Shown in pieces: positions 1 through 52,747 of a DNA stretch of 64,000 nucleotides. Every line of letters starts with the position of its first letter. The first letter of the stretch is position 1. Below the pieces are notes generated by a model. That model saw only the letters and a list, made by a program, of their open reading frames with translations, had not been told where the DNA came from and did not search any database. A program made the position numbers and the translations under genes. Source of the DNA: Nemertoderma westbladi (Eukaryota; Animalia; Xenacoelomorpha); NCBI GenBank assembly GCA_032718475.1, contig JAUCBJ010007166.1, positions 62,001 to 126,000 on the forward strand, in the 5' to 3' direction.

Positions 1-3
1 ACG

Positions 4-5346: not shown

Positions 5347-5357
5347 ATAACAGTCAT
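5347..5357 (+). promoter_or_regulatory. Non-tRNA primer-binding site of element 1 (ATAACAGTCAT)
   Basis: Abuts the 5' LTR, has no TGG start, and is complementary to 4572-4582. Confidence 0.75.
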
Positions 5358-15323: not shown

Positions 15324-15401
15324 CTGTTTAGAGTATTTACGTATATTAGAAACTGTGATTTTGTATATTTTATAGACTCAAATCCCATTTTCTGGGAGCG
15401 G

Positions 15402-16676
15402 TGTAAAAGCTTCTGTGGGATATAACTGGCCCCTTTGCTTCGCAATCCAGTTTCCCCCCAGGCGCTGGAATACTCTAAAAAGGTTCTCTAACTGTATAAA
15501 TATTCCCCTCGCCCTCAAGGTACCGTTACAGGTGTTTTAACGGACATAAAAGTCATTTTGCTATATACGTGTTTTAGCGGACATGGTAAGACAAAAAACC
15601 TGCAATGCGGCAAATACCTTTCATAGCTTAGCCGTGATGATTCATATTACGACATCTAACAGCTGGTTGCTGACATGGAAACAGCCATTGGACGCATGGT
15701 TCTTTGTTTGGCTTGAGCCAATCAGAGCGATTTTTCCTGTCGACGTGTAGCTTTTCGGTCGATCATAAGGAGTGTGTTCAGTCTTACTGTTTTTTCTTGA
15801 TACTTTGTTGTTATTGCTGTCTAGGCCAGGAACAATGGCTCTAGAATCAATTCGTTTCATACTTTTAGAAGAAACATTGGTAGGCTAAAATTATAGAGCG
15901 TATGACTGTTATCTAATCAATTCAATGCAATTCTTAACAATTTCATTCACAATTCAATACTTTGTTGTTATTACTGTTCAACATACATTATTATACTGCT
16001 ATTTACTGTTGTGTTTGGTTGAATATTATTTGGAGAACATATATAAAGAACCCAAATTTCCCAATTTTCTTGATACACTACAGGTTAGAGAGACGGGTTA
16101 TATATAGCGATTGCGACTTATATTGTTGTGGTTTGTAGTGAATTTAATGCTATTTGATAAGCACTACATTGGTCCGTTGCTATTCCCTTTATATATTATA
16201 AAATTCATTGACGGTCGGCAAATTAGTGAGCAGTATTGTGTGTTACCAGTAGTGTGCATGATTGTGATTGATAACTAAGCATTTCCTAAAGAATGCGCCT
16301 CATACGTGAATCATAAGCCTTACCGACTTACCGTTGTGATTAGTATAAGTCATATCTCTGTTTACTTAGATAGAGCGCCACGTCCTAAAGGAACTGTTAA
16401 TATTTCCCGAAAGTAAATAATATTAGTCAGAAATTAATTATTAACGATCAATCGAATAATACAATACAGTAAGCTTCACTGCAATAATAATTTAAGCCGA
16501 CAGAATCCAGTCTCCCGGGATTATCCAGCGGGTGAATGGACGCGCACTAGGCTGGCTTCTGCTAATGTTGTGTTTATTGGTATTAAATATTTGTCTTCTT
16601 CTAAAGTATATTATAAACCAAAAGACATATAAATTTTGGCAGGTTAAACTGCTAAAGGTCTTCAAAAGCGCGTACA
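15402..16676 (+). repeat. 3' LTR of element 1
   Basis: Direct repeat of 4072-5346, preceded by a PPT-like TGGGAGCGG. Confidence 0.97.
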
Positions 16677-18394: not shown

Positions 18395-19596
18395 TGTTCG
18401 CGCTTTCAGACCTTTGGCAGTTTAACCCGCCAAATTAAGATGTCTTCTAGATATTAAATCGCTTTTTAGCCTATGACAAGTATTTGATTCACTACACTAG
18501 TCGAAACCAATCCGTGCGCGACCATTCACCCGCTGGATATTCCCGGGAGATTGGGTTCGACGGTTTAATTTTATTGCTATGTAAGCTTAATGTATTATTC
18601 GACTGACAGTATTATATAATCTCTGACAATATTATTTACCTTCGGGAATATTAACAGTTCCTTTAGGACGTGGCGCTTTATCTATATAAACAGAGTTATG
18701 ACTTAAACTACTCACAACGATATGGCTTAATTATAATTCACATATATGGCGCATTCTTTAGGAATTGCTTCTTTAACAGACTCGCTCATACGCAATGCTG
18801 CACAATACTGCACACTAATCTGCCAATCTTCACTGATTTTAGTCACATATAAAAGGAACACAGACTGACTCATGTAGGGTCTATCAAATAACATTAGATT
18901 CACTTCAAACCACTTTAACATAAGTCACAATCGTTATTGGTAACCTTTCTCTCTTACCTTCGGTATATCAAGAATATTGGGTGTCGGGGTTATTTCTCGT
19001 TATTCCAATATAATAATTCATCAACAAATATAATGAATAACCGACAACAAATAGCAGTATGCAGTATTCACAGATCAATCGTGCCAGTTTGTTTTGATAT
19101 TTACAGAGTTTAAAGCCAGGTTGTTTGATGCGTAATTGCAGCCAGTTAAAGGATATATGTCCTTGTAATTAAACCTACTAGTGTTGAGCTAAAAAGCATA
19201 AAACATAAAACACTACAAAGCCGTTCTTTCGTGGCTTTGAAAAACTCGTGACTACTGCTCTATACGAGGATACCAACTCCCTTATTCCACGAAGCTCCCG
19301 TTCAACACAGAGAAAGAGCAGTGAGATAGGAAATTTTCAGTTCAGTACTCTGTGATAGGTCAAAATCAAGGCTAACTCAAATTCTATTGGGAGATACAAA
19401 ACAAGGCTATGACGCAACCTCCCTAGGCTTGTTGGCCGATTAAACAGAGCCCAGATGCCTGCGTACAGCAAATCAGCCAATAAGCTGGTAACTTGCACTA
19501 TTTTTAGCTGTAGATCACTTTGAGAGTATTCTTAGCGACTGGGGGGGAACTGGCCAACAAGGCAAACGAATCAGTTATCCCACAAAAGCTTTTACA
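18395..19596 (-). repeat. 3' LTR of element 2
   Basis: Direct repeat of 29950-31151, adjacent to the PPT at 19597-19610. Confidence 0.97.
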
Positions 19597-19674
19597 CCGC
19601 TCCCAGAAAATGGGATTTAAGTCTATAAAATATACAAAAGCACAGTTTCTAAAATATAAAAATACTCTAAACAG

Positions 19675-21216
19675 TTAGTCTTTCTTGCGCGGACGGCGTT
19701 TACGCAGTTTCTTGAGGCTAGCAAGAGTCCTTTTCTCTTTGGGGAGAGCCACTTTACGAGGAGGGCTGTAGCTCCTAGGCGAAGGGTGCAATATGATTGC
19801 ATTAGAAGGTTTGGGTTTACGGTCGGTGTCTCGTCCATTTCGATATGCTTCTCCTCGAGCTGATTTTCCTCCGCTTGTCATGGGATACGTTCGTCCAAAA
19901 CTCTCGCAGAGAATAGGGTTTTCTAAGCTTGATATCTTCTTTGAGATTCGAGGTTTCCCAATCGAACTGAGATAAGGCCAATTCGTTTATCGATTGGACT
20001 TACTGTTATAACTTACGTTTATCTGAACAAACGCAGGTTTCTTTGTTGATCTTTATAGAATAGCGTTTAACTCGTTTCGTACAACGCTCTCCTTCACCTT
20101 GATGAAGGGTTGTATTGCGTTAAACGGGACGACCATACGGTTGGATAGTGATATTAGGTGTCTGCGTCATAATCCGGCTAGGTAAGATGGGCGGCTAGAT
20201 AGAAATCACTGTCGGAGTGTTACCGATTAATTGTTAGGGTAGCACTAGATCTTGAACAGTGAATACCGTCCGCGAGGATCCGCGACACCACCAGGATCGC
20301 AGGTCTGAGGTCCAACTAAGGAATGAGGAGGTTTGACCGAGTATTCCGGGACTCTGATCGTAGGTTTACTCTAGGATCGTTAGAGCCGAGTGAGCATAGG
20401 TGATACGTCAAACAAGTTTCGCTCGAAACTCCAGTAAATATAACGAACACAACTGTGTTTAACACAACGTTTCCGTGGATGTTTATGTCTTTCCGTTTAT
20501 TGGCTGGGTCTAGGGCATTTACCGTAATAATACCCAAAAACGTACGTTTTGTAGGGGAAACGCGAGTGATCTTTCTCCAGCTTACAATATTCCTCCATCC
20601 GTTCGAAGCTATTCGGTACAACAGGTAGCGGTCGATCGGCGGTAAGATACATCATAGGGGAATCGAGCCGTTTGAGTTCTACCATGCGGTCATGATGTAT
20701 ACCTTGAGGATATCGAGTTTCTAGATTTTGTTGACTGGCAATATTGAGATATGTTTCTATCAGGAATTCCAGATAATCGTTGAAGTCGCTGCGTTTATCC
20801 GGCTCCTCAACGTCTTCTCTTTCGAGTCTGTTTCGAATAGAATTCTCGTGTTCCATTCTCGGTTTATCGTTCCGCCTCCGCTGGGTAGGATATTTCAATC
20901 GTACCATTTCCCTTTTGGTGTCGACATTGTCCGTATCGTGTAGATCGATAGGATGACCAGTAGTTAAGAAGCCCATATACGTACCATTACGCTGCGTATA
21001 TCGAGCAGCGAATTTTCTATAGTCCAACTCACGCGTGAGCTGCTCTTGGGACATTGGCGGTTCGATATAACGACCATCGTCCTCCGCAGCAGTTGGACTA
21101 ACGTCGCCGCGTATTAAGCTATCAACAAACGCTTGTAAAGTAGAGTATATCGCTCCCCGATACCAAGACCATCTTCTATCAACTCCGTCATATCTGCTAT
21201 ATATGAGTTTATCCAT
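19675..21216 (-). pseudogene. Accessory 3' ORF of element 2 (interrupted)
   Basis: The N-terminus (LQAFVDSLIRG..EDDGRYIEPPMSQEQL) and C-terminus (AIILHPSPRSYSPP..KEKRTLAS.KKLRKR.PRKKD) match element 1. The middle differs and contains stops. Confidence 0.7.
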
Positions 21217-22849
21217 ATTATAATGAGTTTATATTTAGGCGAGCGGGCGTCGCTGCCTACCTCAATCAACCCCCGGACAGTACGAGATCCTCAGCGCCGA
21301 TGTGTCGTCGTCGCTGTACTTTCGCCAACGACGTAGCCGCACAACGACAACGACAACCGGCACAAGTCACTCGACTGTCCGTCCCAAAGTCTTAGATGTA
21401 CTTCAGGTTTTCCTTGGAGAGTTAGGTTACTTTTACGATTGCGACTGGCTACTGTAAACACACCTTAGCAGTAACATTCACCTATAAACTCACAAATACC
21501 ACACACACAACTTGTCACAAATTACACACATTCGGGCCATTTGTCCGTTAGTCAATGCCTTCCAGAATGTCACTGTATTAGTATGTATCCTGGGATACTA
21601 GTAGTGCGCTATTTATTCCCTATGCTATTCAATGGGACAAGCTTTCTATTGTTCTTTTAACTCAATTCTAATTCTAGCGTGGTTGTTGCTATGGTGACAT
21701 TATGCAAAGCTAGCGGTAGAATTAGGGTAGTTCCAATGCATACAGATCTGGGATGTTATTTAATAGTATTCTTTAATAGTCAATGTTCTGTTTTATACAT
21801 GACTTTATGAATTTTATCGGCTATTGACTATGTTTGGGAGACTTTCACACACTCATACGCATGATAAGATAAATCTCCGCTCCCTTGATCTATTAATTAA
21901 TGAAATTTTGGGAACTTTATAAATTGCGTAAAAATGGCAATTTATTAAATTCATTAAAAGGCATGAATTTAAATTTATTCCCTGAAATTTTATTATTTGA
22001 CAACTAAATGGACATATTTTGATTCTAGAACATGTCTGGGGACACAAGATCCTTAATTCTATGACAATTGTCTTTTTAAGAATATCGGTAAATGCTACGA
22101 TATCTTAATTGACTAGAATTATTGCAGGATCTGAATTTTACAGATTTTGATTTATTAGATTTTGCAAATATTAATTAATTAATATTTGAGATGGGCACCG
22201 ATTTATTCCAGAACTTGTCTGGGGACGTTAACCACTGATTCTAGAATTTGTCTTTCAAGTATATCGGTGGGTGCCGCGATATCTTAATCGACTAGAATTA
22301 CAGATGGTCAAAGGGTTTAACAGATTTATTTTGCGTTATACGCTACTGTTAAAGGGACATCACGCTACTATATGTATTATTTAATATACGGTATGAGAGC
22401 AATATCGCACGAAGCAATGTCAGTGTGAAGAGGCAAGTCGTTTCCAAGGTCTACCCAGAGCTTGGTTTAGCCGAGACACGAGGATCTGAACTTTGCATTC
22501 CTAATACTCTGCCTACCAATAATACTTAAATATAGTAGTGGCTTTATTGTACTTTAATAAGTACGGACATTTCATCTTACTGTAGTCACGTATTTATAAT
22601 ATGATACGGACAGTAAGGAAAGAGGAAAAGAATTATTTCTTGCCGTCGCATTAAATATAATATATACGTAATTAAGTAATAAACGCGAATATATATTGCA
22701 CTAATCTACTAAATAATCGCTAAAATAACATTCTACTGAATAAAATTAAAGAAAACGATTATAATAAAATTACATAGTAATACATACATAAATATAAAAA
22801 TAATAAAATAATATAAAATAATAGAGTCACACACCCACTCCATATGTTG

Positions 22850-25800
22850 TTACGTTATGGAGTCCCTAGATGTTTGAAGGATTAGGGAGGTGGTCGTGGG
22901 AAGAGAATCTTGCCTTCCACAGTTTCCGGAGAGTCCTCCATTCCCTTCCGATAAACACAAACGACCGACTGGGTGATTGAGTCGCTGCATCCTGAATACA
23001 ATTCCAGGTTTCCTCTTCGTCCTGGAATAGTGACGATAGAAACATCGCTCAAAGTATATGACGGCGTCACAAAGCCGATTCCAGGAGCTATAGTGGTCCG
23101 TCGCTCTCTGCAGGAGAGGTGAGAGTCCCTGCGAGACATCTGATGTTCCAGAGCTCCAATCGCTCTCTCTGATCTTCATGAAGGATCCACTCGCGGTGGG
23201 GAGGTCCAGATCCACGGCGTCGTCCCTGGCAATATGTAATACCGACAGATCTGTCCCGGGTTCAAATAACTCCGCTCCACCCGTCCTGGTTTTAGGTTTA
23301 ACTTTCTCCGCTCCCTTGGCTGGTCTAATCTCAGTCGGAGTAAGATGGGGAGGCCATTCATCCTCCTTACTCAGGAAGTCGGGTTCACCTAACCGGTCTG
23401 TAGTATCTGTCAGTTCTTGAGGAGTTGCTCCTCTGGAAGCGATGTCAGTTGGATTAAACTTCTTGGGGCAATATCTCCATTGATCTACATTGGAGCTAAG
23501 ATTGTCATTATCTGAGGAGTGTGGTGTTCCCTCAGTTGGGTCGTCTCCCTCACTAGTATCATCTTCCCATTCACTCACCTGGCAGACGCGATCTTGAAGC
23601 AGTCTTTCCCTGAGCGTTCTACGGGAAGGTCCAGTAAGGTACCAACCTACTCTAGTTCTTACCGCATAGGTCTGTAGTGGCTGCGGTTGAGCAGGCCGTT
23701 TCTCTAATGTCTCCAGCGCCTCATGCGCGTTTTGGCCGATGAGTATTTGCACTCCAGGATAATCAGTCTGGAATCGAGGTATGTTAAGATGTTGGATGCT
23801 CTCATCCTCGTCCCAATTATAAAGGTCTGCTTGAGTAGTAGCGAAGTTCTTTATAGCCACCATTTTCACTGACCTTATGCTGTGTTCTCCTAGTTCGTCC
23901 TGGGGGGTGGACAACGCTCCTACATAATAATCAGCTGTTATTGTAGATTTCCAAACTTGCATAATGCCTGACATGTTGAGCTTAGTTTGGAACTTGGGTT
24001 GTCCAGCAAATATATCTTCGGCTAGCTCTTTATCGATGAATGTTCCTGTACTACCGGAGTCAAGGAGGGCGTTCACTACATAACTCCTCTCAGGTCCGTG
24101 AACCCTTACTTGCACCACAGGAAACTCTCGGATCCCTACATTGGAAGATGGCTCTTTCCAAGATGGTTGTCGCTCAGAAGTAGTTAGAGTAAAGTCGTTA
24201 TCTGGATCCTTTTCATAGGTGAGTGCTCGATACACTGCGGTATTTATCATGTAACAGGATTCGTTTTCGTCGGAGAACTCGTCTGTATAGAATCCTTCCA
24301 TCTCAGATTGATCAGTGTCGTTCACATCACTGAATTGGACATGTAGTTCGGACTCACTTACCTGACTCGGGCTGTTTCGTTCGAATTCCGTGTGCAACAA
24401 GATATGATGTTTTGCGCCGCACTTTGCACACCTTGCGTCGGAGTTACAGGTTCGCCGTTGGTGTCCTCGTCTGAGGCAATTATAACACAACCGCTTATCC
24501 CACATGACTTCACGTCTATCCTTTAGTGATTTCCTCAGGAATTTATCACACGCATTTAAACGGTGGGGCCCGTCGCACAGCACACATTTGGGCTTGATGT
24601 TACTTACTTTAACATGTGCTGTGTGGTGCACACTTGTTCTTTCCTCGGGCTTTCTCACCTGAATTCTTTTAGGAGACGTAGGAGGGGTTTTTTGTACCGG
24701 TTCCCTTCTGTCATTGGGTCGAGACTTGGATTTACTTACCTGATCTTTAGGCATTTTATTGACATAAGATCTGTCAGTGTCTTTCCCGCTGTCCTCTCCT
24801 TGAGAAGTTTGGCTTTCACCGTCGTCGGTATAACATACTGGTATTACCCTTCTCCTAGAAACGGGTTTCTCACTTACCTTACTTTCCGCTGTCTTCTCTC
24901 TGGACTGCTTTATGAGCTGTAATTTCACCTCGCTATCCAGGAATGACATGAGATCAGCCATGGTAGGGTCTCGTTGTTGTTGTTCCATCATATATAACAC
25001 CTTCTTGTCCCAGCGTGTACCTACTCCACCCTTGGGCAAAGTAGATGCTAAGGCTCCTACAACCATAGAATTCTGGTATTCATGAGACTTACCTAACCAA
25101 TCTAGTTGTCTACAGATCTCCTGAATCTCATCGGAAAACTCTATAATCCCGCTGCTAAGAAACTTTCGGGGCGCCATTAATTTCGCATATAAATACCTAG
25201 CTATGTTAGTCCTATTACCATACCTGATGTTTAGTGTATCCCAAACTTGTCTTAATCCGTCTGGATGTCCAATAAACTTTAACGCCATTAACTTGGGAGA
25301 TCCTTCCAAGCACTCGATGAGGTATCTAAGCTTTTCTCCATTAGATAGTACAGAGTTCTGTATGTTATCTTTGTAATATTCATTAAAAGGTAACCATTTC
25401 ATCTCATCTCCATTGAACTTGACGATCTCTCCAACCTTTACCGCTTGCCGGGCTTCGGTTCTAGCCATTTGACGCGTAAAACTTTCTTGGGCCATCGTGC
25501 TATTTAATATCGAGTTATCGGTATATAAATTTCTCGGATTATGATCCGGTCTATAGGGAATATCACTATCAACAGGTCTATAATTACCCTTAATAGGGTT
25601 CACTATAGGAGTTTCTACTTCGCTAGCAGTATAGATGCTTGTAGGCTCCACACCTTGCGCATGAGATACTTCAGACCTAACGGGTTGACACATTGTTACA
25701 GAGGGTGGTGGTATACCCTTTTTTAAGTTTACTAATTTATCGCGTTCTAACGCGATACTTTGCTGCACCTTTTGCAACTCTAACCTACTTTCCCTTACTG

Positions 25801-27766
25801 TGCCCTTGAATTGCTGGACAGTCTCTTCCAACTCTCGGACCTGTTGGGAGGAGCGTATCCGATTCTCCTTCATCTCTCCAAGGAGAATATCCATCCCCCG
25901 CCGTCTCTCGTCTACCCAATCAACCGCCGAAACGGGATCCGCCAACGTCGTAGCGGGCAGACGAGGGACAACGGGCGACAAATTTGGAATATTTCGCTCG
26001 GGGTCCAGGACTTGAACTGTCTCCTGGGCAGTTCTACGGGGCACAGGTAGCTTAGTGCTATGCAGAGGGAATTTAGAGGTAGTTTCAGGGAGCACAGGTG
26101 TGTCTATCACCGAAGGGGTGATTTCAAGAACAGGCCTAATTATTTCAGGCTCATCTACTATAGTAGGGAGTCTTTCTATTTTAATTATTTGGTCTGTGGG
26201 CTCTGTACTACCTAAGTTGGTGTTATTTAGTTGCCTTCTAACAGCTGGAGGCAAATCAGGCAATTTCTGACGGTGGAATGTTCTTTTACGTCTACTTAGA
26301 CGAGATCTATTTCCCTTGCCTTCAGTATCGGTGGTATCGCCTTCCTCAGATGATGTATATCCCTGTCTTTTGGGAGTAGATCGATTCATCATCTGCATAT
26401 TACTAGCTGTTAACTGTTTATTTATGCAGTCTTGATTCTCCTGAATGTTTTCCAATTCTAATTGGGTGGTTTCTTCAGCCGCTCTCCGTTCTGCTTCTAC
26501 CACTGCCGCTGCCACTTTTGCCTCTGCCGCTGCCTCTGCCGCTGCCGCCTTTCTTTCTGCTTCTGCAGCTGCCACTGCTGCTGCTACTGCCGCTGCCTTT
26601 CTGTCTTCTATGCGTTTTTTCTTTACTTGTTCTTCTTGTTCTCTAGCTATGCGGAGTTGTTCATCGAATTTAGCTTGGTTCGCCGCTAACCTATCCACAT
26701 CAATCGCATCTAACACGAGTTTGGCTCCTTCGCTATTAGGGCTAAGTCCCTTTAACCTTCTCCTCAACTCTTCATCTCCCAAAAAACTGATAGTCTGACA
26801 GATAGATATCAATGGCATCCTTCTTATGCGGTTTCTCTGCCGTCGCTTCACTTTCCACTTGGGAAAAAGTAGCGTCCGTCGATTCTCCATGGGTTGAGCG
26901 CTCCTCCAACTGAGCTTTCCACTGAGCTGCTCCTTGAACCTGGCGACTCACCCGTTGAAACCAAGTTTTTACGGCAACTTGCAACGACGTGTCTTGTTTT
27001 CTTTTAGAAGCCTCCTCAAAGATAAGATTAGCCTAATCCTCAAAACTCTTTCTCTAACTTGATAAAGCAGCGATCCCTGCTCTTGAGGTCCTTGAGGTTG
27101 TTGAAACAGTTTTCTCTCTACTCGCTCCATAGAGCTGAAGAATCCCTGGGCGTATCCGGCTGCGGACCTCTTCCATACAGCTGGATCGATGGTTTCCTTG
27201 GCTACTCCCATCCGGTGTATGTCTTCCCAGGCAGCTTCTAATAAATCAAACGGGAGTCCGGGTCCGGGGAAGTTCCATTGCGACTCGACAATAGACTTCA
27301 GTTCTTCACTCGTGTATCCCGCGTAACTATCTCTAGTTGACCGTTGACTTCTCGCCCAATCGATCTGGTGTTCTTCCACCGCGATCAATAACCCAGCGAG
27401 CACGGCTGCAGGAAGGATGAGAAGGGGATCCGTATAAACCGCATCCGTCATCTCTGCTCTGCGCTCGGGTGTCAGCTCTACAGTATCCTCACTACTGGAG
27501 CTGCTGGGCCGCTGAGGAATAAGTTCTTGACTAGCGGGTTGTTGCTGTTCCGCTGCCTTTTGGTCCCGCTTGACCTGAGCTCGAGTGCCTATGATAGACC
27601 TACGATGTTGGACCAGCCTAGGTTCTGTTATTACTACTGGAGGGATGACCTTCCTCACAGTGGGAGGTGAACTGAACTTACGACCAGACGGTTGTACATC
27701 TCTATCTGAGTCGCAGATAGTTACATCTAATAAACTGTCTGACAGGTTCTGCTTAGTATCAGACAT
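22850..27766 (-). pseudogene. BEL/Pao Gag-protease polyprotein of element 2, broken by two small deletions
   Basis: Collinear with the element 1 ORF. Apparent 4-nt (near 27020) and 2-nt (near 26787) deletions with a stop at 26969-26971 between them. Knuckles, ALLDSGS and NPTDIASRG are retained. Confidence 0.9.
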
Positions 27767-29099
27767 GACTATGTATACCGTTGAATGTCTACTGCTGTAT
27801 TACAGTCTGAGTAAGTCTAATAACTGTTAGTAACTGTTAGTATTAACTGCTAGCCTAGTAATTAATTACCGATACTGCTACTCAGTGTAGCGTGATATAT
27901 ATAATATATTAGAATACCGGTATACTTATAGTATATATAACTATATAAGTATTATTACAGACTATGTTTATCACAGAATACCGGTATAATTTTAGCACAA
28001 ATATATATAAATATATAATAGGCCTATCGGAATACCGGTATACAGCTTACAGTTTGTAGTATATATAATTCTGGAATAGAATTAATTACAAGTACCGGTA
28101 TAATTTCAGCCTAGATTTATAGAAATAAGATAATAGGCCTATCGTAGATACCGGTATATCAATTATTTTAGAATAATTGAATTTGTGAACTTTAGGGTTA
28201 CTTGGTTACTTTAACTTACTTTATTACCGTTATTTAAGCAGTAATCCAACTGATATTGAGACCTAATGGTTTTATGGTAGGCCTACTATTTATAAATCGT
28301 TAGATTTGATTTATAATGTATTTATACCCGTTTTAATGGGTTTAGTCAATGTTTGAAATAAATGTTATTATTTCTGGGGTAATCACTACACAAAGCGGTG
28401 CGCTTTTAGTGAAGTGTTACGTATAGGACACTAAAACAAATAATTCTAATTTACCTAAGTTACTTAATACTACAAATTACGTACAATTCGGGTGAGATTA
28501 CAATCTCTAAATAAACACAAAAATTTACAAAAAAACACAAAATACGAATTTTTAGGGTAATTTTACAAGAAGTCTACAAACCAGCCTAACAAAGGGTTAG
28601 ATATCCGGTTATTACAACGGACAGGGTACTACGGTATTTGAAATAATAAGTAGTAGTAAATACACTGCGTTGTCTAGATAGGAAAATACCACCGCCTGAC
28701 GACCTATAGCCGTATCGCTATAGGTACTACGTTATGTATCACGGAGTGTTCCTACCTAGAAGTTAATAGAGCTAATCGAATGTGCCTATTAACCACTTTA
28801 CAACACAAATATAATGCCTACACTAATTACTTTCGGAAAGCACTGTACACTAAACCCTAAATTAGGTACGAGTACTTGTACAACAAATAATCAGTAGTTA
28901 ATTATACTTGAACAGCTAAAAGAACCACGGCATCTGCTGGAGTGACCGATGCACAAAATCACCAGTCTTTACCTACGCCAAGCAGCCCGTGTAGTACCGG
29001 GGTTAATTTAACTATAGCGGTATGTATAACAAACACAATTACTGTAGGAACAAACTTGGGGAATGAATGTTGCGGATAATCGCATAAACTCTGAATAAT

Positions 29100-29700
29100 A
29101 AATATTACGCTACGCGTACAAACTACTCAAACAAAATACAGACCGAACACTGACAGACTACTATCAAGCCTAAACAAACTACGGTATATGCAGACTCCGA
29201 AATGATTAGGGAGTATGCGCTCTAACCCAGTAGTGCGACTTATTCTTTAGTTGGGGGTTTACCTTACAGCGTTCGCTGCCCCTACTTCCTAACCGTACTT
29301 AATCAGACAAATGATCTACACACACTGCAATCCGTTCAGACCTAATAACAGCCGGACAACTATCCAGCCTACAAATTATCTAAATAAAATTATACGCTAC
29401 CCGTACAGACTTACACAAACAAAGTACAGACTAAACGATGGCAGACTACTCTCAAGCCTAAATAAACTACAGGACATGCAGACTCCGAAATGATTAGGGA
29501 GTATGCGCTCTAACCCAGTAGTGCGACTTATTCTTTAGTTGGGGGTTTACTTTACAGCAATGGCTACCCCAACTTCCCAACCGTTCTTTATCGGACAGGT
29601 GACCTACACACACTGCAACTCGTTCAGACTTAACAGCAATCAGACAACAGCTCAGCCTACAAATTGTCTGTACAATCTGATCAGGCTTACACGCCTTCTG
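29100..29700 (-). repeat. 288-bp tandem duplication in the 5' UTR of element 2
   Basis: CAGACTCCGAAATGATTAGGGAGTATGCG... occurs at 29191 and 29479. Confidence 0.9.
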
Positions 29701-29938
29701 TTCAATACTGGCCTACAAACAAATAAAACTTGACAGAAATAAGTAAAAATCTCAATAAAAAACCAGGGCGGGCCCTCCCTGATTAATTATTAAGGCCTAC
29801 CGGTATATAACTATCAAATCGAATAATACTGCTGTACCTGTACTGCTGTAGGTACCGGTCCGGGTGGTTAGGTAGTCAGGCCTACTGGGTACCGGTTGCC
29901 GGTACTTCAGCTTTATTGCCTACTGCAATACAGAAGCT

Positions 29939-29949
29939 ATATCCTTTAA
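29939..29949 (-). promoter_or_regulatory. Non-tRNA primer-binding site of element 2 (TTAAAGGATAT on -)
   Basis: Abuts the 5' LTR and is complementary to ATATCCTTTAA on the minus strand at 30711-30701. Confidence 0.75.
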
Positions 29950-31151
29950 TGTTCGCGCTTTCAGACCTTTGGCAGTTTAACCCGCCAAATTAAGATGTCT
30001 TCTAGATATTAAATCGCTTTTTAGCCTATGACAAGTATTTGATTCACTACACTAGTCGAAACCAATCCGTGCGCGACCATTCACCCGCTGGATATTCCCG
30101 GGAGATTGGGTTCGACGGTTTAATTTTATTGCTATGTAAGCTTAATGTATTATTCGACTGACAGTATTATATAATCTCTGACAATATTATTTACCTTCGG
30201 GAATATTAACAGTTCCTTTAGGACGTGGCGCTTTATCTATATAAACAGAGTTATGACTTAAACTACTCACAACGATATGGCTTAATTATAATTCACATAT
30301 ATGGCGCATTCTTTAGGAATTGCTTCTTTAACAGACTCGCTCATACGCAATGCTGCACAATACTGCACACTAATCTGCCAATCTTCACTGATTTTAGTCA
30401 CATATAAAAGGAACACAGACTGACTCATGTAGGGTCTATCAAATAACATTAGATTCACTTCAAACCACTTTAACATAAGTCACAATCGTTATTGGTAACC
30501 TTTCTCTCTTACCTTCGGTATATCAAGAATATTGGGTGTCGGGGTTATTTCTCGTTATTCCAATATAATAATTCATCAACAAATATAATGAATAACCGAC
30601 AACAAATAGCAGTATGCAGTATTCACAGATCAATCGTGCCAGTTTGTTTTGATATTTACAGAGTTTAAAGCCAGGTTGTTTGATGCGTAATTGCAGCCAG
30701 TTAAAGGATATATGTCCTTGTAATTAAACCTACTAGTGTTGAGCTAAAAAGCATAAAACATAAAACACTACAAAGCCGTTCTTTCGTGGCTTTGAAAAAC
30801 TCGTGACTACTGCTCTATACGAGGATACCAACTCCCTTATTCCACGAAGCTCCCGTTCAACACAGAGAAAGAGCAGTGAGATAGGAAATTTTCAGTTCAG
30901 TACTCTGTGATAGGTCAAAATCAAGGCTAACTCAAATTCTATTGGGAGATACAAAACAAGGCTATGACGCAACCTCCCTAGGCTTGTTGGCCGATTAAAC
31001 AGAGCCCAGATGCCTGCGTACAGCAAATCAGCCAATAAGCTGGTAACTTGCACTATTTTTAGCTGTAGATCACTTTGAGAGTATTCTTAGCGACTGGGGG
31101 GGAACTGGCCAACAAGGCAAACGAATCAGTTATCCCACAAAAGCTTTTACA
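29950..31151 (-). repeat. 5' LTR of element 2
   Basis: Direct repeat of 18395-19596; minus strand reads TGTAAAAGC...CGAACA. Confidence 0.97.
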
Positions 31152-31538
31152 TACGCCTTATACTTTAATCATAAGCGGTATCGTTGCGTTTAGTATAAGT
31201 CCTAGTTCTGTTTAAATAGATAGAGCGCCACGTCCTAAAGGAACTGTTAATATTTCCCGAAAGCCAATAATATCTGTCAGAGATTAATTATTAACGATCT
31301 ATCGAATAATACAGTAAGTTTACACTGCAACCTTACACTGCAATAATAAAATTTAAGCATCCGAATTCAGCCTCCCGGGTGTAGATCCATCGGGTGAATG
31401 ATCGCGCATGGGCTGACTTCGGCTAATGTTTTGTGTATTAGCATAAAATATTGTCGTATGCTAAAGGTGTTTTAATTAACTAAAAGACATATAAATTTTG
31501 GCAGGTTAAACTGCTAAAGGTCTTCAAAAGCGCGAACA
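31152..31538 (+). mobile_element. 3' part of a third LTR variant of the same family
   Basis: Aligns to LTR1 about 4965-5346 (AGAGCGCCACGTCCTAAAGGAACTGTTAATATTTCCCGAA ... GCTAAAGGTCTTCAAAAGCGCGAACA); followed by poly-C. Confidence 0.9.
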
Positions 31539-31850
31539 CCCCCCCCCCCCCCCCCCCCCCCCCAGTGGTAATAGGGTTAATATTTCCTCAGTTTAAAAAC
31601 AATTATATACGACCAGTAAATACTCTCACATTTGTATTGTCGGAATGGATGTTTTACAGCAGGTTGAGTCTACAATCGTGCGTTGCTAAGTTTTGATAAG
31701 GCGTTTCTGGCCTCATTTTGCTTGTTTACTAAAAATGCTTAGCCACTACACTTTACTGCTGCTTTAAAATCGAGCTATGTTCTGGCGTATTTTATGACTT
31801 CCAAATCCTGGACAGTCCATTCAATGATGCCCACGCCTTCCCCTTACGTA

Positions 31851-37137: not shown

Positions 37138-40100
37138 GTCCCTCCCCCCTGTTCCCTGTCCCCTGTTCCCTGTTCCCTGTTCCCTGCTCCCCGTTCCCTG
37201 TTCCCTGTTCCCTGTTCCCTGTTCCCTGTCCCCTGTTCCCTGTTCCCTGTTCCCTGTCCCCTGTCCCCTGTTCCCTGTTCCCTGTTCCCTGTTCCCTGTC
37301 CCCTGTCCCCTGTTTCCTGTCCCCTGTTCCCTGTTTCCTGTCCCCTGTCCCCTGTTCCCTGTTCCCTGTCCCCTGTCCCCTGTCCCCTGTCCCCTGTTCC
37401 CTGTCCCCTGTTCCCTGTTCCCTGTTCCCTGTCCCCTGTTCCCTGTTCCCTGTTCCCTGTTTCCTGTTCCCTGTTCCCTGTTCCCTGTCCCCTGCCCCCT
37501 GTCCCCTGTCCCCCGTTCCCTGTTCCCTGTTCCCTGTTCCCTGTTCCCTGTTCCCTGTTCCCTGTTCCCTGTTCCCTGTTCCCTGTTCCCTGTTCCCTGT
37601 TCCCTGTTCCCTGTTCGCTGTTCCCTATTCCCTGTTCCCTGTCCCCTGCCCCCTGTCCCCTGTCCCCTGTTCCCTGACCCCTGTTCCCTGTTCCCTGTCC
37701 CCTGTTCCCTGTTCCCTGTCCCTGTTCCCTGTTCCCTGTTCCCTGTTCCCTGTTCCCTGTTCCCTGTTCCCTGTCCCTGTTCCCTGTTCCCTGTTCCCTG
37801 TTCCCTGTTCCCTGTTCCCTGCCCCCTGTTCCCTGTTCCCTGTCCCCTGTTCCCTGTTCCCGGTCCCCTGTCCCCTGTTCCCGGTCCCCTGTTCCCTGAC
37901 CCCTGTTCCCTGTTCCCTGTCCCCTGTTCCCTGTTCCCTGTCCCCTGCCCCCTGTTCCCTGTTCCCTGTTCCCTGTTCCCTGTCCCCTGTTCTCTGTCCC
38001 CGGTCCCCTGTTCCCTGCCCCCTGTCCCCTGTTCCCTGTCCCCTGTTCACTGCCCCCTGTTCCCTGTTACCTGTTCCCTGTCCCCTGTTCCCTGTTCCCG
38101 GTCCCCTGTTCCCTCCCCCCTGTTCCCTGTTCCCTGTCCCCTGTTCCCTGTTCCCTGTTCCCTGCCCCCTGTTCCCTGTTCCCTGTTCCCTGTTCCCTGT
38201 TCCCTGTTCCCTGTTCCCTGTTCCCTGTCCCCTGCCCCCTGTCCCCTGTTCCCTGTTCCCTGTTCCCTGTTCCCTGTCCCTGTTCCCTGTTCCCTGTTCC
38301 CTGTTCCCTGTTCCCTGTTCCCTGCCCCCTGTTCCCTGTTCCCTGTCCCCTGTTCCCTGTTCCCGGTCCCCTGTCCCCTGTTCCCGGTCCCCTGTTCCCT
38401 GACCCCTGTTCCCTGTTCCCTGTCCCCTGTTCCCTGTTCCCTGTCCCCTGCCCCCTGTTCCCTGTTCCCTGTTCCCTGTTCCCTGTCCCCTGTTCTCTGC
38501 CCCCTGTCCCCTGTCCCCTGTTCCCTGTCCCCTGTTCCCTGTCCCCTGTTCCATGTTCCCTGTCCCCTGTCCCGTGTCCCCTGTCCCCTGTTCCCTGTCC
38601 CCTGTTCCCTGTTCCCTGTCCCTGTTCCCTGTTCCCTGTTCCCTGTTCCCTGTTCCCTGTTCCCTGTTCCCTGTTCCCTGTTCCCTGTTCCCTGTTCCCT
38701 GTCCCCTGTTCCCTGTTCCCTGTTCCCTGCCCCCTGTTCCCTGTTCCCTGTTCCCTGTTCCCTGTTCCCTGTTCCCTGTTCCCTGTTCCCTGTCCCCTGC
38801 CCCCTGTCCCCTGTTCCCTGTTCCCTGTTCCCTGTTCCCTGTCCCTGTTCCCTGTTCCCTGTTCCCTGTTCCCTGTTCCCTGTTCCCTGTTCCCTGCCCC
38901 CTGTTCCCTGTTCCCTGTCCCCTGTTCCCTGTTCCCGGTCCCCTGTCCCCTGTTCCCGGTCCCCTGTTCCCTGACCCCTGTTCCCTGTTCCCTGTCCCCT
39001 GTTCCCTGTTCCCTGTCCCCTGCCCCCTGTTCCCTGTTCCCTGTTCCCTGTTCCCTGTCCCCTGTTCTCTGTCCCCGGTCCCCTGTTCCCTGTCCCCTGT
39101 TCCCTGTCCCCTGTTCACTGCCCCCTGTTCCCTGTTACCTGTTCCCTGTCCCCTGTTCCCTGTTCCCGGTCCCCTGTTCCCTCCCCCCTGTTCCCTGTCC
39201 CCTGTTCCCTGTTCCCTGTTCCCTGTTCCCTGTTCCCTGTTCCCTGTTCCATGTTCCCTGTTCCCTGTTCCCTGTTCCCTGTTCCCTGTTCCCTGTCCCC
39301 TGTCCCCTGTCCCCTGTTCCCTGTTCCCTGTTCCCTGTCCCTGTTCCCTGCCCCATGTTCCCTGTTCCCTGTTCCCTGTTCCCTGTTCCCTGTTCCCTGT
39401 TCCCTGTTCCCTGTCCCCTGTTCCCTATTCCCTGTCCCTGTTCCCTGTTCCCTGTTCCCTGTTCCCTGTTCCCTGTTCCCTGTTCCCTGTCCCCTGTCCC
39501 CTGTCCCCTGCCCCCTGCCCCCTGTTCCCTGTTCCCTGTTCCCTGTTCCCTGTCCCTGTTCCCTGTTCCCTGTTCCCTGTTCCCTGTTCCCTGTTCCCTG
39601 TTCCCTGTCCCCTGCCCCCTGTCCCCTGTTCCCTGTTCCCTGTTCCCTGTCCCTGTTCCCTGTTCCCTGCCCCCTGTTTCCTGTTCCCTGTTCCCTGTTC
39701 CCTGTTCCCTGTTCCCTGTTCCCTGTTCCCTGTTCCCTGTTCCCTGTTCCCTGTTCCCTGTTCCCTGTTCCCTGTCCCTGTTCCTGTTCCCTGTTCCCTG
39801 TTCCCTGTTCCCTGTCCCCTGCCCCCTGTCCCATGTTCCCTGTCCCCTGTTCCCTGTCCCCTGTTCCCTGACCCTGTTCCCTGTTCCCTGTCCCTGTTCC
39901 CTGTTCCCTGCCCCCTGCCCCCTGTTCCCTGTTCCCTGTTCCCTGTCCCTGTCCCATGTCCCCTGTTCCCTGTCCCCTGTTCCCTGTTCCCTGTTCCCTG
40001 TTCCCTGTTCCCTGTCCCCTGTCCCCTGTTCCCTGTCCCCTGTTCCCTGTTCCCTGTTCCCTGTCCCTGTTCCCTGTTCCCTGTTCCCTGTTCCCTGTTC

Positions 40101-41206
40101 CCTGTTCCCTGTTCCCTGTCCCCTGCCCCCTGTCCCCTGTCCCCTGTTCCCTGTCCCCTGTTCCCTGTCCCCTGTTCCATGTTCCCTGTCCCGTGTCCCC
40201 TGTCCCCTGTTCCCTGTCCCCTGTTCCCTGTTCCCTGTCCCTGTTCCCTGTTCCCTGTTCCCTGTTCCCTGTTCCCTGTTCCCTGTTCCCTGTTCCCTGT
40301 TCCCTGTTCCCTGTTCCCTGTTCCCTGTTCCCTGTCCCCTGTTCCCTGTTCCCTGTTCCCTGCCCCCTGTTCCCTGTTCCCTGTTCCCTGTTCCCTGTTC
40401 CCTGTTCCCTGTTCCCTGTTCCCTGTCCCCTGCCCCCTGTCCCCTGTTCCCTGTTCCCTGTTCCCTGTTCCCTGTCCCTGTTCCCTGTTCCCTGTTCCCT
40501 GTTCCCTGTTCCCTGTTCCCTGCCCCCTGTTCCCTGTTCCCTGTCCCCTGTTCCCTGTTCCCGGTCCCCTGTCCCCTGTTCCCGGTCCCCTGTTCCCTGA
40601 CCCCTGTTCCCTGTTCCCTGTCCCCTGTTCCCTGTTCCCTGTCCCCTGCCCCCTGTTCCCTGTTCCCTGTTCCCTGTTCCCTGTCCCCTGTTCTCTGTCC
40701 CCGGTCCCCTGTTCCCTGCCCCCTGTCCCCTGTTCCCTGTCCCCTGTTCACTGCCCCCTGTTCCCTGTTACCTGTTCCCTGTCCCCTGTTCCCTGTTCCC
40801 GGTCCCCTGTTCCCTCCCCCCTGTTCCCTGTCCCCTGTTCCCTGTTCCCTGTTCCCTGTTCCCTGTTCCCTGTTCCATGTTCCCTGTTCCCTGTTCCCTG
40901 TTCCCTGTTCCCTGTTCCCTGTTCCCTGTCCCCTGTCCCCTGCCCCCTGTCCCCTGTCCCCTGTCCCCTGTTCCCTGTCCCCTGTCCCCTGTCCCCTGTC
41001 CCCTGTCCCCTGTCCCCTGTCCCCTGTCCCCTGTCCCCTGCCCCCTGCCCCCTGCCCCCTGTTCCCTGTCCCCTGTTCCCTGTCCCCTGTCCCCTGTCCC
41101 CTGTCCCCTGTCCCCTGTCCCCTGTCCCCTGTCCCCTGTCCCCTGTCCCCTGTCCCCTGTCCCCTGTCCCCTGTTCCCTGTCCCATGTTCCCTGTTCCCT
41201 GTCCCT

Positions 41207-41207
<1 letters not shown>
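37138..41207. repeat. Heptamer satellite (TGTTCCC/TGTCCCC/TGCCCCC)n, left arm
   Basis: Continuous 7-bp tandem array with variant units. Confidence 0.98.
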
Positions 41208-41245
<38 letters not shown>

Positions 41246-41615: not shown

Positions 41616-44600
41616 TTAATACCCCAGTTCTGTGAAGCGCTGGGTTGATGTAATGTAGATTTCTAGTGCCTCTGAAATAGCTCTGAGTATGTCCAGGTCC
41701 TGTCCTTGCGGTCCATAAAGTAAGTTGTGTAGAGTATAGTTGATGTTAAGGCTGGAAAGTACGGTAGTCAGTGCTATCCTGTGGGAGTCGTGCAGAGTGC
41801 ATTCCATTAAGTAGTGGTAGGTGTCCTCACGTTGGTGTCCACAAGCGCAACTGGAGTCTGTGGCTATGTGGTTACGGTACATGTCATATTTTAGTACGCT
41901 GCAGTTGCGACGTAGTCGCCCAACTAGCCCATTGATAGCAACAGATCCTAACATGAAATATGGGTTTAATTTATTAACTTTATATCTGCCCTCCGTCAGT
42001 AAGATTTTCTTAAATATTTTTAGCGTTTCTGACTCAGTTACCTCATATGGAAGATCATTCCATAGAGAAACAGTTGAGCTTACAAACGAATTCTTTAGAC
42101 ATTCTGTGCGTGTTATCGGTAGTCTGTATTTATTCGTAGGTCTCAAATTATAAGGGTTGGCTTGATCAATACGCGGTGGAATGATTTCAGTTAGGTGATG
42201 TGGTAGGTGTCCTTTAGATCCCTTGTAAAAAATACTCAGTTTAATTAAGTCGCGGCGGTCCTGTAGTGTTTGTAAGCCCGATTCAGCGTACAGGTCCTCA
42301 GTGCGGCACGATATTGTAAGTTTACATATAATTCTAATGGCCTCTTTATTTATTAGTTCAAGTCTTTCTTTTAGATATTGTGTACAACCATCCCATACGG
42401 GACAAGCATATTCGAGAATAGGCCGCACAAAGGAGGTGTATAGCACTGAAAGAGCCCTTTTGCTAAGCTTGTATTTAGCAGCTCGCAGAAGGTTTAGTCT
42501 AGTCTTTGCTTTGTCAATAATGTTATTAATGTGGGAGTTCCACTTTAGGTTATTTTGAAGTGTCACACCAAGGTGCTTGTGGTGTTCGACTTCAGCGATG
42601 GGAGTATCATGTAGAAGTAGCTGTGTGTATCCTGTACGTGGTTCTTGTCGGTGCGTAATTGTCATAGCTTCAGTTTTTAGTGGGTTGTAATCTACTGACC
42701 ACATATCCCCCCATTCGCCAATTCGTAGTAAGTCATCATTAAGTAGCCGGCAAGCTACTTGTGGGTCAGTAACCTCAATGTACAACGAGGTATCGTCGGC
42801 AAAAAGTCTAGTTGGGTTAACCGTGATATCAATAAGGTCGTTTATAAATATTAAGAAGAGTAGGGGACCAAGAACTGATCCTTGGGGGACCCCTGCAGTG
42901 ATCGGTAGCCAAGGCGACATGTGGCCTTTGATCATAACGCATTGGCTATTGCCACTGAGGTATGATAAAAGCCACTCAAGTAAAGGGCCGCCAATTCCCA
43001 TTCTACGGGCCTTAGTTATAAGGCCTGCATGGCTAATTTTGTCGAAGGCCTTAGTAATGTCAAGGAAAGCAATCTTGACTTCCTTTCCATTATCTAAGGC
43101 TGTAGATAATTCGTCAAAAAGTGTTATGAGTTGGTAAGTAGCAGAATCACCAGGTAAAAAGCCTGACTGATTTTTATTTATTTTTTTAATTACGTGGTGC
43201 AGTATATATTTACTGACAATCCTTTCGAATAATTTTCCTAAAGCGCTTGTTAGAGAAATAGGCCTATAATTACAGCAGTATATGTTGGGGCCCTTTTTAT
43301 AAACAGGTGTGACACATCTTTTTTTCCAATTTGTGGGATGGTGTTTTGATTTCAGGACGAGATTAAATAAATTTTTTAACTTTTCGATTATGACTGGACC
43401 TCCCATTTTGAGCATCCTGTTGGAGATTACATCAACTGGACAACTTGCCTTAGCGGGGTTAATTGTTTTTAAGGCTTCCTTTACATCGTTAGATGTGATA
43501 GTAATTTCATTTAATATTTCAGAGACGTCATCTAAATTCTGGGCATCATGATTTTGGCCGACATTGCTATTAGTTGGGGCGGTTGCCTGATCAGCAAAAT
43601 AGATATTAAAGAGTTCTGCCTTGTCTGCTGATGAACTGGCATGGATATTTTTATAATTTACTGGGGGTATTTCGTTAATTTTATTAGTTTGTAAAATTTT
43701 TTTGGTGAGTGACCACCATTGTTTTGTACTATGTTGGGTTGATTCCACTTTTTCTGATAGAGAATTAAAGTATTCCCTTTTTGCTTGTCTACAGGAGGAT
43801 ATATAAGAGTTCCTACTCATTCGGAAGTTGGCCCAGGCTACTTCGGAATTTGACCTCTTGGCGATATTATGATATTTTTGTTTTTCTTTTAGTAGTCGTC
43901 TGGTGTCACTATCAAACCAGGGCTTGTCATTGGGGCGAATGGTGACCACCCTGTTCGGTATGTGCTTTGAAGCAATTTTCATAAAATTTTTTGTCCAAGT
44001 ATCAATAATTCCGTCAATGTCGTCTGGTCTAATGTCGTTAACTTCTTCCGGTATCTTAGCTAGATCAGTCTGAGTAAGCTCCCGTCGGAAGGATGTATTA
44101 TTAGCGTGGCTGAAATCCCACACCCGTCGTTTATATGCTGGATCCTGGGTCATTGTCAGCTTATATTTAAAATGAACTACCATATGGTCGCTGCTTCCAT
44201 AAGGCGCCTCATGAAAGACATCATAGACTGAGCCGGGAGTAGTTGTCATCACTGGGCTTAATAGAGTTTTAGTTGTCCTTGTCACCCGAGTTGGTTCGGT
44301 TATGTATTGCGTGAGTCCTTGTCTCTGTATCAAAAATCGTAGGTTTATTGACGATTGGTGTATAAGGTAATCTTCGTTTAAGTCGCCGAGTAGTAAAATG
44401 TGTTGGTATTCAAGTGCCCGGGCCTCATTCAACATTGCATTAAAACTCTCCCAGTAAAACGTTACATTTTCAGGCCTGTAGCCTACTCCTATTAAAAATT
44501 TTTTGTTGTTAGCCAGACATTCAACCCATAGTACCTCCAACCGGGGGTCAATGTTTTCTAGTGTAATTTTGCGTTCGCATTTTATAAAATTGGAAATATA

Positions 44601-45071
44601 TAGGCATACACCGCCTCCATGTCTGTTTCTATCATTACGAAGAGGATTTTGAAAACCAACTATTTTCAAATTGTCATCATTTATACTGGTTTCAAGCCAA
44701 GTCTCATTTATAGCCAGTATATCAACCTCGCTAGAGAGATTTGGCTTTATAAACTCTTTATTTAAAATTAAGCTTCTAATATTTGTCTGAGCAACTCTAA
44801 TTGGACGAATAAATTCATTTGGGCCTGGGTTAGGTTGGATATCCCCAGCAATAATTAACAACAGCCGTAATGCCATATGTGGTATTGTATTTTCATTTAT
44901 AAATATAAATATAAAAATAGCAAAATTATTATGTTGGCAATTTTGTTTGTATTTTTTGTGCATAAAGATCATGGAATTCTTCCAATAGAAATAAAGATTC
45001 TTAACCATACATACATAATCATCTACACACACACACACACGCACCCATAATACATACTGGGCCCAGAACAT
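41616..45071 (-). CDS. LINE ORF2: APE endonuclease, reverse transcriptase and C-terminal Cys/His motif
   Basis: NIRSL, INETWL, GGGVCLYI, LLGDLN, SDH; NYRPISLTS, QSGFLPG, FLDITKAFD, GVPQGSVLGPLLFLIFINDL, LFADD; CACGHQREDTYHYLMEC. The true start codon is uncertain (candidate Met at 44876). Confidence 0.95.
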   Translation of the reverse strand: MFWAQYVLWVRVCVCVDDYVCMVKNLYFYWKNSMIFMHKKYKQNCQHNNFAIFIFIFINENTIPHMALRLLLIIAGDIQPNPGPNEFIRPIRVAQTNIRSLILNKEFIKPNLSSEVDILAINETWLETSINDDNLKIVGFQNPLRNDRNRHGGGVCLYISNFIKCERKITLENIDPRLEVLWVECLANNKKFLIGVGYRPENVTFYWESFNAMLNEARALEYQHILLLGDLNEDYLIHQSSINLRFLIQRQGLTQYITEPTRVTRTTKTLLSPVMTTTPGSVYDVFHEAPYGSSDHMVVHFKYKLTMTQDPAYKRRVWDFSHANNTSFRRELTQTDLAKIPEEVNDIRPDDIDGIIDTWTKNFMKIASKHIPNRVVTIRPNDKPWFDSDTRRLLKEKQKYHNIAKRSNSEVAWANFRMSRNSYISSCRQAKREYFNSLSEKVESTQHSTKQWWSLTKKILQTNKINEIPPVNYKNIHASSSADKAELFNIYFADQATAPTNSNVGQNHDAQNLDDVSEILNEITITSNDVKEALKTINPAKASCPVDVISNRMLKMGGPVIIEKLKNLFNLVLKSKHHPTNWKKRCVTPVYKKGPNIYCCNYRPISLTSALGKLFERIVSKYILHHVIKKINKNQSGFLPGDSATYQLITLFDELSTALDNGKEVKIAFLDITKAFDKISHAGLITKARRMGIGGPLLEWLLSYLSGNSQCVMIKGHMSPWLPITAGVPQGSVLGPLLFLIFINDLIDITVNPTRLFADDTSLYIEVTDPQVACRLLNDDLLRIGEWGDMWSVDYNPLKTEAMTITHRQEPRTGYTQLLLHDTPIAEVEHHKHLGVTLQNNLKWNSHINNIIDKAKTRLNLLRAAKYKLSKRALSVLYTSFVRPILEYACPVWDGCTQYLKERLELINKEAIRIICKLTISCRTEDLYAESGLQTLQDRRDLIKLSIFYKGSKGHLPHHLTEIIPPRIDQANPYNLRPTNKYRLPITRTECLKNSFVSSTVSLWNDLPYEVTESETLKIFKKILLTEGRYKVNKLNPYFMLGSVAINGLVGRLRRNCSVLKYDMYRNHIATDSSCACGHQREDTYHYLMECTLHDSHRIALTTVLSSLNINYTLHNLLYGPQGQDLDILRAISEALEIYITSTQRFTELGY

Positions 45072-45420
45072 GAACCACCACCAGGATAGTGCCCTCCACC
45101 AGCCGTACCCGGTAAGCCTAATGTCAGTTCCTTACCTAGATTGAAAATAGGTGATATGAAATGAAGATGAGATCATGACTGAATATAAAGTATTATATTA
45201 TATTATTTTGGTTACTACATTAATTAGTACCGGTACCCTTTTATAAACAATATTTGTATTACATGTTACAAGTATTATGAGGATGAATTATGTCAATATG
45301 AATACAGTATATACCGATAAGACAAGTATTTGTGAATTACTTAGCTCCAAGCTGTAGTTCCCTCCAGGTTTAGTTTATTCGACTAATAAGTAACCATGAC
45401 CGTAAATTGTCTCAAGTGAC

Positions 45421-46824: not shown

Positions 46825-46954
46825 GTGTAATTAATGGGCGGACGTAGAACGAGGTTAAACGTTAATGCAGTATTGAGTTTATAAGGCGCAAGGCATACCG
46901 GGTGGTACGGCAGGCAGACTTATTACCGGTAGCGGTACCAGATGCAGCAAGTGC

Positions 46955-52615: not shown

Positions 52616-52747
52616 TTTAACATGCAACTTAATAATCTCTAATATAAATAATATATAAAGCGTACTAAAAAGCAAGGGAAACCGTAAGTTAATAGTTTAA
52701 TTATTAGTAGTTAAAATTGATGTTAAATACATTTAATACAATAAGAT

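Follow-up and report, generated by a model that had tools for sequence, protein, structure and literature searches.

The question raised by this locus is how reverse transcription is primed in an LTR retrotransposon whose 5' LTR is followed directly by a sequence that pairs with a segment of the LTR itself. To our knowledge, self-primed reverse transcription has been proven for Tf1 only, and has been proposed for related gypsy elements and some plant copia elements. BEL/Pao is the third LTR superfamily and the least studied.

The window, by which we mean the whole 64-kb stretch of Nemertoderma westbladi DNA that was analysed, contains two related elements, termed elements 1 and 2. In element 2, TATATCCTTTAA at 29938-29949 and TTAAAGGATATA at 30701-30712, with a copy at 19146-19157, formed an exact reverse-complement pair, as an earlier note on this DNA had reported, and these three were the only occurrences in the window. 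The placement of one half at the LTR boundary was equally correct, 29949 being the first base past the 5' LTR of element 2 (29950-31151). The sites in the two elements were as follows.

29938-29949, minus strand: primer-binding site (PBS) of element 2, beginning at the first base past the 5' LTR; no TGG
30701-30712, minus strand: predicted self-primer segment in the 5' LTR of element 2, made up of the 11-mer 30701-30711 and one extra pairing base
19146-19157, minus strand: copy of the self-primer segment in the 3' LTR of element 2, same sequence as 30701-30712
5347-5357, plus strand: PBS of element 1, 11 nt; no TGG
4572-4582 (copy 15902-15912), plus strand: predicted self-primer segment of element 1, the positional homologue of 30701-30711

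The 3' end of the segment at 30701-30712 pairs with the first PBS base, i.e. it faces U5. The paired segment occupies LTR positions 440-451 in element 2, while in element 1 the first 11 bases past the LTR pair with LTR positions 501-511; the 12th base pair is present in element 2 only, the pairing of element 1 ending at 11. The distances of 762 and 775 nt, which the earlier note had measured from a 'predicted TSS' to the LTR end, stand as intervals between the start of the 11-mer and the end of the LTR in elements 2 and 1, respectively, the start site being an assumption and not something seen in the sequence.

Structure and protein content of the two elements

Comparison of the window with itself delimited the two LTR elements, and the following features were assigned to them.

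4072-16676, plus strand: element 1, with LTRs at 4072-5346 and 15402-16676 (1275 bp, 6 differences) and a 5-bp target-site duplication
7575-11831, plus strand: Gag-protease ORF of element 1
about 11907-12071, plus strand: RNase H remnant of element 1
18395-31151, minus strand: element 2
29950-31151, minus strand: 5' LTR of element 2, 1202 bp, TGT..ACA
18395-19596, minus strand: 3' LTR of element 2, 1202 bp, identical to the 5' LTR
19597-19605, minus strand: polypurine-type tract of element 2, adjoining the 3' LTR; the same in element 1 and similar in public BEL/Pao loci
26972-27799, minus strand: N-terminal part of gag of element 2, the remainder cut off by a frameshift
22853-26947, minus strand: remaining gag and protease of element 2, with DUF1759 and zinc knuckles; RT and integrase absent
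about 23339-23494, minus strand: C-terminal remnant of a BEL/Pao RNase H in element 2

The long ORFs of the two elements matched DUF1759 with E values of 1.4e-12 and 3.3e-13 and carried zinc knuckles and an LDSGS protease motif, the frameshift in the gag of element 2 lying near 26947-27030. Past the protease, the ORF jumps in both elements to the C-terminal RNase H motif of BEL/Pao polyproteins, and neither a domain search nor alignment to BEL/Pao polyproteins found reverse transcriptase (RT) or integrase in either element. A word search of proteins gave 14 matches at 22-38% identity, all of them with BEL/Pao domains. The best 150 relatives from a HMMER search of 1.84 billion representatives showed 24-40% identity with no close relative among them, and a scan of the best 12 detected DUF1759 in 11 and Peptidase_A17 in 10.

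Both elements have the direct TG..CA LTRs, the polypurine tract, the DUF1759 Gag with zinc knuckles and the protease of BEL/Pao, and both lack a complete pol (RT, RNase H and integrase) and an 18-nt tRNA-type PBS. Judged by their sequences, they are defective, non-autonomous LTR retrotransposons derived from BEL/Pao and not complete members of that group, and we infer that their RT and integrase must come from elsewhere. The LTR pairs are young, and the family has therefore moved recently. No target-site duplication of 4, 5 or 6 bp was found around element 2, for which reason its flank, where a third LTR fragment adjoins, appears to be either rearranged or mis-joined. This fragment, the 3' part of a related LTR of about 390 bp with 81% identity to LTR1 (31152-31563, plus strand), lies against the 5' LTR of element 2 and terminates in ACA followed by 25 C.

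Several further features of the elements were recorded. An extra ORF region without a Pfam match lies towards the 3' end of each (13859-15323, plus strand, in element 1; 19678-21228, minus strand, in element 2), and encodes in element 1 a protein of 369 aa with two Cys/His knuckle-like motifs, the counterpart in element 2 being broken. The long 5' leader of both elements holds about two copies of a 288-bp unit (5771-6290 and 29106-29665), and shorter duplicated units are found near 7229-7474 and 12795-13085. Elsewhere in the window, positions 1-972 (plus strand) contain the end of the integrase ORF of another LTR element, with a weak rve match and of a type other than elements 1 and 2. Two long satellites with a 7-bp unit, at 37147-41209 (583 copies) and 46954-50411 (496 copies), lie on either side of a LINE that has endonuclease and RT (41616-45131, minus strand) and whose ORF1 carries a 24-bp repeat. 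An intronless ORF for a ZDHHC14-like palmitoyltransferase (61560-62570, minus strand), with 44-61% identity to its best 120 matches from many animal phyla, and a DUF3105 ORF (52745-53641, plus strand) sit among LINE fragments and foldback repeats (60511-61035 and 62937-63789).

Covariation of the pair, transcript start and RNA folding

The earlier note had judged a chance origin of the pairing unlikely and had proposed that the expected frequency be computed from shuffled sequences. The figures agreed with that judgement: among 20,000 dinucleotide shuffles each, an anchored match of at least 12 bases was seen 10 times for LTR2 and one of at least 11 bases 15 times for LTR1, and the number of matches expected within 15 nt of a fixed site was about 2e-5. 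When every internal position of the two elements was treated as a false PBS, matches of at least 11 bases were reached at 8 of 10,025 and 6 of 10,323 positions, the real PBS being counted in.

Alignment of LTR1 to LTR2, which had also been suggested, placed the 11-mers at homologous positions, with exact register in MAFFT and in three of five pairwise settings; the remaining two settings displaced the 11-mers by 7 nt, one in each direction. Over the 40 nt upstream of the 11-mers, the ungapped register 0 was the best, with 23 of 40 positions identical versus 9-17 in other registers. It was likewise confirmed that the letters of the 11-mers differ between the elements at this homologous position, the two PBSs sharing 6 of 11 letters. 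All five of the positions at which they differ are compensated in the LTR segment, for which the probability by chance at a fixed site was about 0.0016, and the PBS of each element matched the LTR of the other over 5-6 bases only. What had been called a second, independent instance is thus a second case with different letters but not an independent one, since the elements belong to one family (80.6% identity over 6.7 kb and 86% over 2.2 kb). Because elements 1 and 2 are relatives of about 80-86% identity, the two matching PBS-LTR pairs are, on this comparison, covariation inside one family with no second origin, and the weight of the second case comes from the five compensated differences and not from a second origin.

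No TGG was present in the first 9 nt past either 5' LTR, and no tRNA gene was found in the 64-kb window. A TATA box 25-35 nt upstream of the 11-mer was found in neither element. Of 11 relatives examined, eight had no TATA box; in the other three it preceded the paired segment by 124, 133 and 135 nt. The positions of these three boxes argue that the paired segment need not be the RNA 5' end, and point to an RNA start about 100 nt upstream of the segment. We lean slightly towards the segment being the 3' end of a longer 5' fragment, as suggested by the relatives with a TATA box; the Tf1-like alternative, in which the RNA begins with these 11 nt, would have just short of an even chance. Two other arrangements were tried and rejected. 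For a primer formed across a splice junction, the best junction matches in elements 1 and 2 were 6 and 5 bases long, and 59 and 82 of 340 control positions did at least as well. The direct TG..CA LTRs argue against a DIRS-type internal complementary region. AG occurs at -7/-6 before the 11-mer in both elements, and element 2 has no canonical donor upstream.

Folding predictions placed three structures around the PBS of element 2.

29968-29989, minus strand: predicted U5 hairpin of 8-9 bp, just upstream of the PBS; retained in every one of the three LTR types, changes being on one side only
29953-29958 with 30071-30076, minus strand: predicted arm of a U5-end helix, 6 bp and G+C-rich; in all three LTR types
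29914-29930, minus strand: predicted leader hairpin, just downstream of the PBS; common to element 1

The 11-bp duplex alone was predicted at -12.4 and -10.3 kcal/mol for the two elements. In folds of R-U5 with a 150-nt leader, its pairing probability was near 0 in both elements, while with a 60-nt leader enforcing the duplex cost 0.0 kcal/mol in element 2 and 2.7 kcal/mol in element 1. The predicted U5-end helix has its partner site 127-137 nt away from the end of the LTR, and in one of its pairs both bases have changed; one of the six LTR differences of element 1 breaks this helix in its 5' LTR. In the models, the helix resembles one arm of the Tf1 'pretzel'. A candidate leader duplex for the other arm was found at non-homologous sites in the two elements, at +577 (10 bp) and +15 (8 bp), and was weak against window controls in element 1. 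In addition, a 29-bp stretch identical in the three LTR types (about 30208-30236 in LTR2) holds a 7-base part of the PBS of element 2 beside a 7-base part of the primer segment of element 1, and competes with the duplex in folds; this overlap was spotted post hoc and is probably due to chance.

Public BEL/Pao loci and variation within the family

An alignment of 26 BEL/Pao polyproteins, used to scan metagenome contigs, yielded 80 loci, and an LTR-pair search was applied to 59 of them, the other 21, mostly short or flankless, being omitted. Eight loci were judged with both LTR ends, the 3' LTR of L054 stopping at the contig end. Self-complementarity of at least 10 bases (10-15) at offsets of 0-3 was found in five of the eight, as opposed to none of 90 cross-pairings, and each of the five matches was reached by 0-2 of 340 control positions. 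Two of these matches were direct (L070, 11 bases; L040, 10 bases), and three ran across the splice junction of GTAAG..YAG introns of 76-149 nt (L002, 12; L016, 12; L050, 15). As for the remaining three, L054 gave a 10-base match only without the pyrimidine filter, L039 had no match at 10 bases, its best being 9 under relaxed conditions, and L077 was tRNA-type, with TGG at +6. In another 36 loci, for which no LTR end was fixed, a best ACA-anchored match of at least 11 bases was found 11 times, as compared with 3 of 72 controls; one of the 11 is a near-copy of L016 and another a short-range hairpin, and the cut-offs of 10 and 11 were chosen post hoc. PBS matches present only at the junction of an LTR intron (10-15 bases, of which 4-9 come from the upstream exon) were seen in L002, L016, L050, L007, L008, L024, L031, L055 and L075.

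The five positive loci (L002, L016, L050, L070 and L040) resemble elements 1 and 2 in having no TGG, a self-complementary PBS and a similar purine tract. In contrast to elements 1 and 2, most of these five loci, which are of marine-invertebrate type, had full gag-pol matches, and their LTRs were of 0.18-0.7 kb. Furthermore, the matches in L002, L016 and L050 require removal of the LTR intron, whereas elements 1 and 2 match their own LTRs without splicing, and the tree gave no support for close kinship of these loci to the elements. In this quick tree of 43 Gag-protease rows, elements 1 and 2 stood on a long branch (3.36) with no supported place and did not group with the self-complementary public loci.

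The stretch, whole or in part, was present in contigs of six sequencing runs from four studies, none recorded as RNA. The element family was very abundant and variable in these contigs, the depth of which is not a copy number, and the PBS junction was covered by contigs of two runs from two studies. With a variable position defined as one of at least 8% in runs X1 and X3, 29 such positions were counted across the 851 nt of 29900-30750. Two of the 11 PBS positions were variable, 29945 (27% and 26%) and 29949 (29% and 37%), both towards the letter of element 1, versus none of 98 flanking positions (Fisher p 0.009; p 0.051 against the remainder of the 851-nt stretch). By retroviral logic, a PBS that is copied afresh from an unchanging tRNA in every cycle is expected to be the least variable part of an element, and the variability seen here is thus unlike that of such a site. 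Neither 30705 nor 30701, the partner positions of these two PBS variants, was listed as changed; depth there was low and two joints resume at 30702, and variant copies may be missing over 30701/30705 owing to this low depth and to the joints. In run X1, depth was about 1.2 million in U5, 102-270 thousand over the 11-mer and 9-17 thousand just downstream. Exact scans with LTR motifs gave no matches in viral contigs and none in metagenome contigs, and protein-based scans of viral contigs found no relative.

A self-priming reading, its alternatives and its meaning

We consider it likely, by analogy with Tf1, that elements 1 and 2 self-prime minus-strand DNA synthesis with RNA of their own LTR segment and not with a host tRNA, using helper enzymes. 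Observation covers the pairing and its five compensated differences, its place immediately past the LTR, the way it is oriented, the absence of a tRNA-type site and the deletion of RT and integrase; annealing, cutting, priming and templated repair are modelled on Tf1. The transcript would be packaged by Gag together with the enzymes of an autonomous relative, and the LTR segment would bridge a folded loop of about 750 nt to anneal with the PBS. A cut on the 3' side of the segment, made in Tf1 by RNase H, would free a 3'-OH, from which RT would extend into U5. Plus-strand synthesis would then copy the primer and rewrite the PBS, so that both sites would change together and stay matched. The PBS variability in the family contigs, the matches in the public loci, the low cost of the duplex with the 60-nt leader and the U5 hairpin and U5-end helix beside the PBS also speak for this reading. 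Speaking against it are the near-zero duplex probability with the 150-nt leader, the unchanged partner positions of the two PBS variants, the non-homologous leader duplex, the long branch of elements 1 and 2 away from the self-complementary loci, the three of eight public loci that fell short, the post hoc cut-offs and the ICTV description of the family as tRNA-primed.

The same pairing could instead be a selected long-range RNA structure serving packaging, dimerisation or a translation switch, with priming left to something else, for example a fragment of a tRNA or a hairpin close by. R-U5 is long and predicted to be highly structured, and the disfavoured state of the duplex in the fold with the 150-nt leader would suit such a role. 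A switch, however, needs neither a position at the first base past the LTR, with the 3' end facing U5 as at a primer site in both elements, nor a splice junction; the same placement, at offsets of 0-3, recurs in the five public loci, and no alternative primer site is visible. We therefore regard a purely structural role as unlikely. Similarly improbable, in our judgement, is a primer of the LTR-segment sequence supplied in trans, be it a small RNA (piRNA, siRNA) or an LTR transcript from other copies or solo LTRs that is short, spliced or terminated early. Abundance in the contigs (with the caveat on depth given above), the length of the 750-nt loop, the context dependence of the duplex in cis and the predicted good annealing of the 11-mer as a separate strand all speak for it. 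Mixed subfamilies, however, should often leave a PBS that fits the LTR of another subfamily, while the fit of each element here is perfect to its own LTR and poor to that of the other.

Chance or an assembly artefact has, in our estimation, next to no probability. Element 2 does have identical LTRs, no target-site duplication and an adjoining third LTR fragment, so its flanks may be rearranged, and matches of at least 11 bases do occur at a few other internal positions. Against this, two matches lie at a fixed anchor and a homologous site, element 1 has a clean 5-bp duplication, contigs from separate studies cover the PBS junction, and the pattern recurs in unrelated public contigs.

Self-priming from the LTR segment thus remains the preferred reading, and Tf1 is the system on which it is modelled. 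The Tf1 primer is the first 11 bases, with an RNase H cut between bases 11 and 12 (PMC7175516), and the 'pretzel' consists of three duplexes around the PBS (bioRxiv 10.1101/2022.12.06.519325). Tf1/Tf2 of Schizosaccharomyces pombe, Tj1 and Tosmo1-3, members of the Tf1/sushi group of Ty3/gypsy chromoviruses, share with elements 1 and 2 the lack of a tRNA site, an 11-base LTR segment complementary to an LTR-adjoining PBS and flanking U5 structure (PMC7175516, PMC4600332, bioRxiv 10.1101/2022.12.06.519325). Elements 1 and 2 differ from this group in having BEL/Pao-type and not Ty3/gypsy proteins, no integrase and no chromodomain, and a loop of 750-765 nt, with one of the two flanking 'pretzel' duplexes supported. 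They are thus predicted to work like Tf1 yet fall outside the Tf1/sushi group, only BEL/Pao domains having been found in them. Self-priming has been published for Tf1/sushi, Tcn1 (gypsy) and the copia TAR lineage (PMC6317226), the plant Tcn1 and TAR/Houba/Osr-1 cases being predicted by a near-identical rule (at least 10 bases, 0-5 nt past the LTR); unlike elements 1 and 2, these belong to other superfamilies and to plant hosts.

Belpaoviridae (BEL/Pao, genus Semotivirus) have in common with elements 1 and 2 the TG..CA LTRs, a short purine-rich tract, a DUF1759 Gag with zinc knuckles, an aspartic protease and the RNase H C-terminal motif. The ICTV describes the family as tRNA-primed, with a PBS of 18 nt that pairs with the 3' terminus of a host tRNA (PMC8742986). 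In contrast, elements 1 and 2 have no tRNA-type PBS and their RT and integrase are deleted; they are 12.6-12.8 kb long, with LTRs at or above the ICTV limit of 1.2 kb (PMC8742986). Our literature search found no report of self-priming in BEL/Pao, although it covered accessible papers without supplements or Repbase Reports, so that a prior mention is possible. The accessible text of PMC3601003, PMC5443660, PMC6934838 and PMC8220671 contained none, and a term look-up in the BEL/Pao papers PMC3118150, PMC554778 and PMC6238403 gave no mention of a PBS or tRNA.

If self-primed, elements 1 and 2 would represent a third LTR superfamily with self-priming. A broader proposal, which we put forward tentatively and to which we give slightly less than even credence, is that self-priming is common in invertebrate BEL/Pao, the primer, unlike that of Tf1, being formed by the 3' end of a transcript's 5' fragment, about 100 nt long or longer and often made by splicing of an LTR intron; elements 1 and 2 would then be a deep-branching, intron-free form with a structured 750-nt loop and dependence on helpers. 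Self-priming predicts a cut after base 11, an RNA start site and, in relatives, an intron, all of which can be tested by RNA-end sequencing. If true, it would explain the many BEL/Pao elements in which annotation pipelines detect no PBS and would provide a simple search rule, and the self-complementary, covarying PBS found here, together with those of five of eight public loci, would change the definition of BEL/Pao as tRNA-primed.
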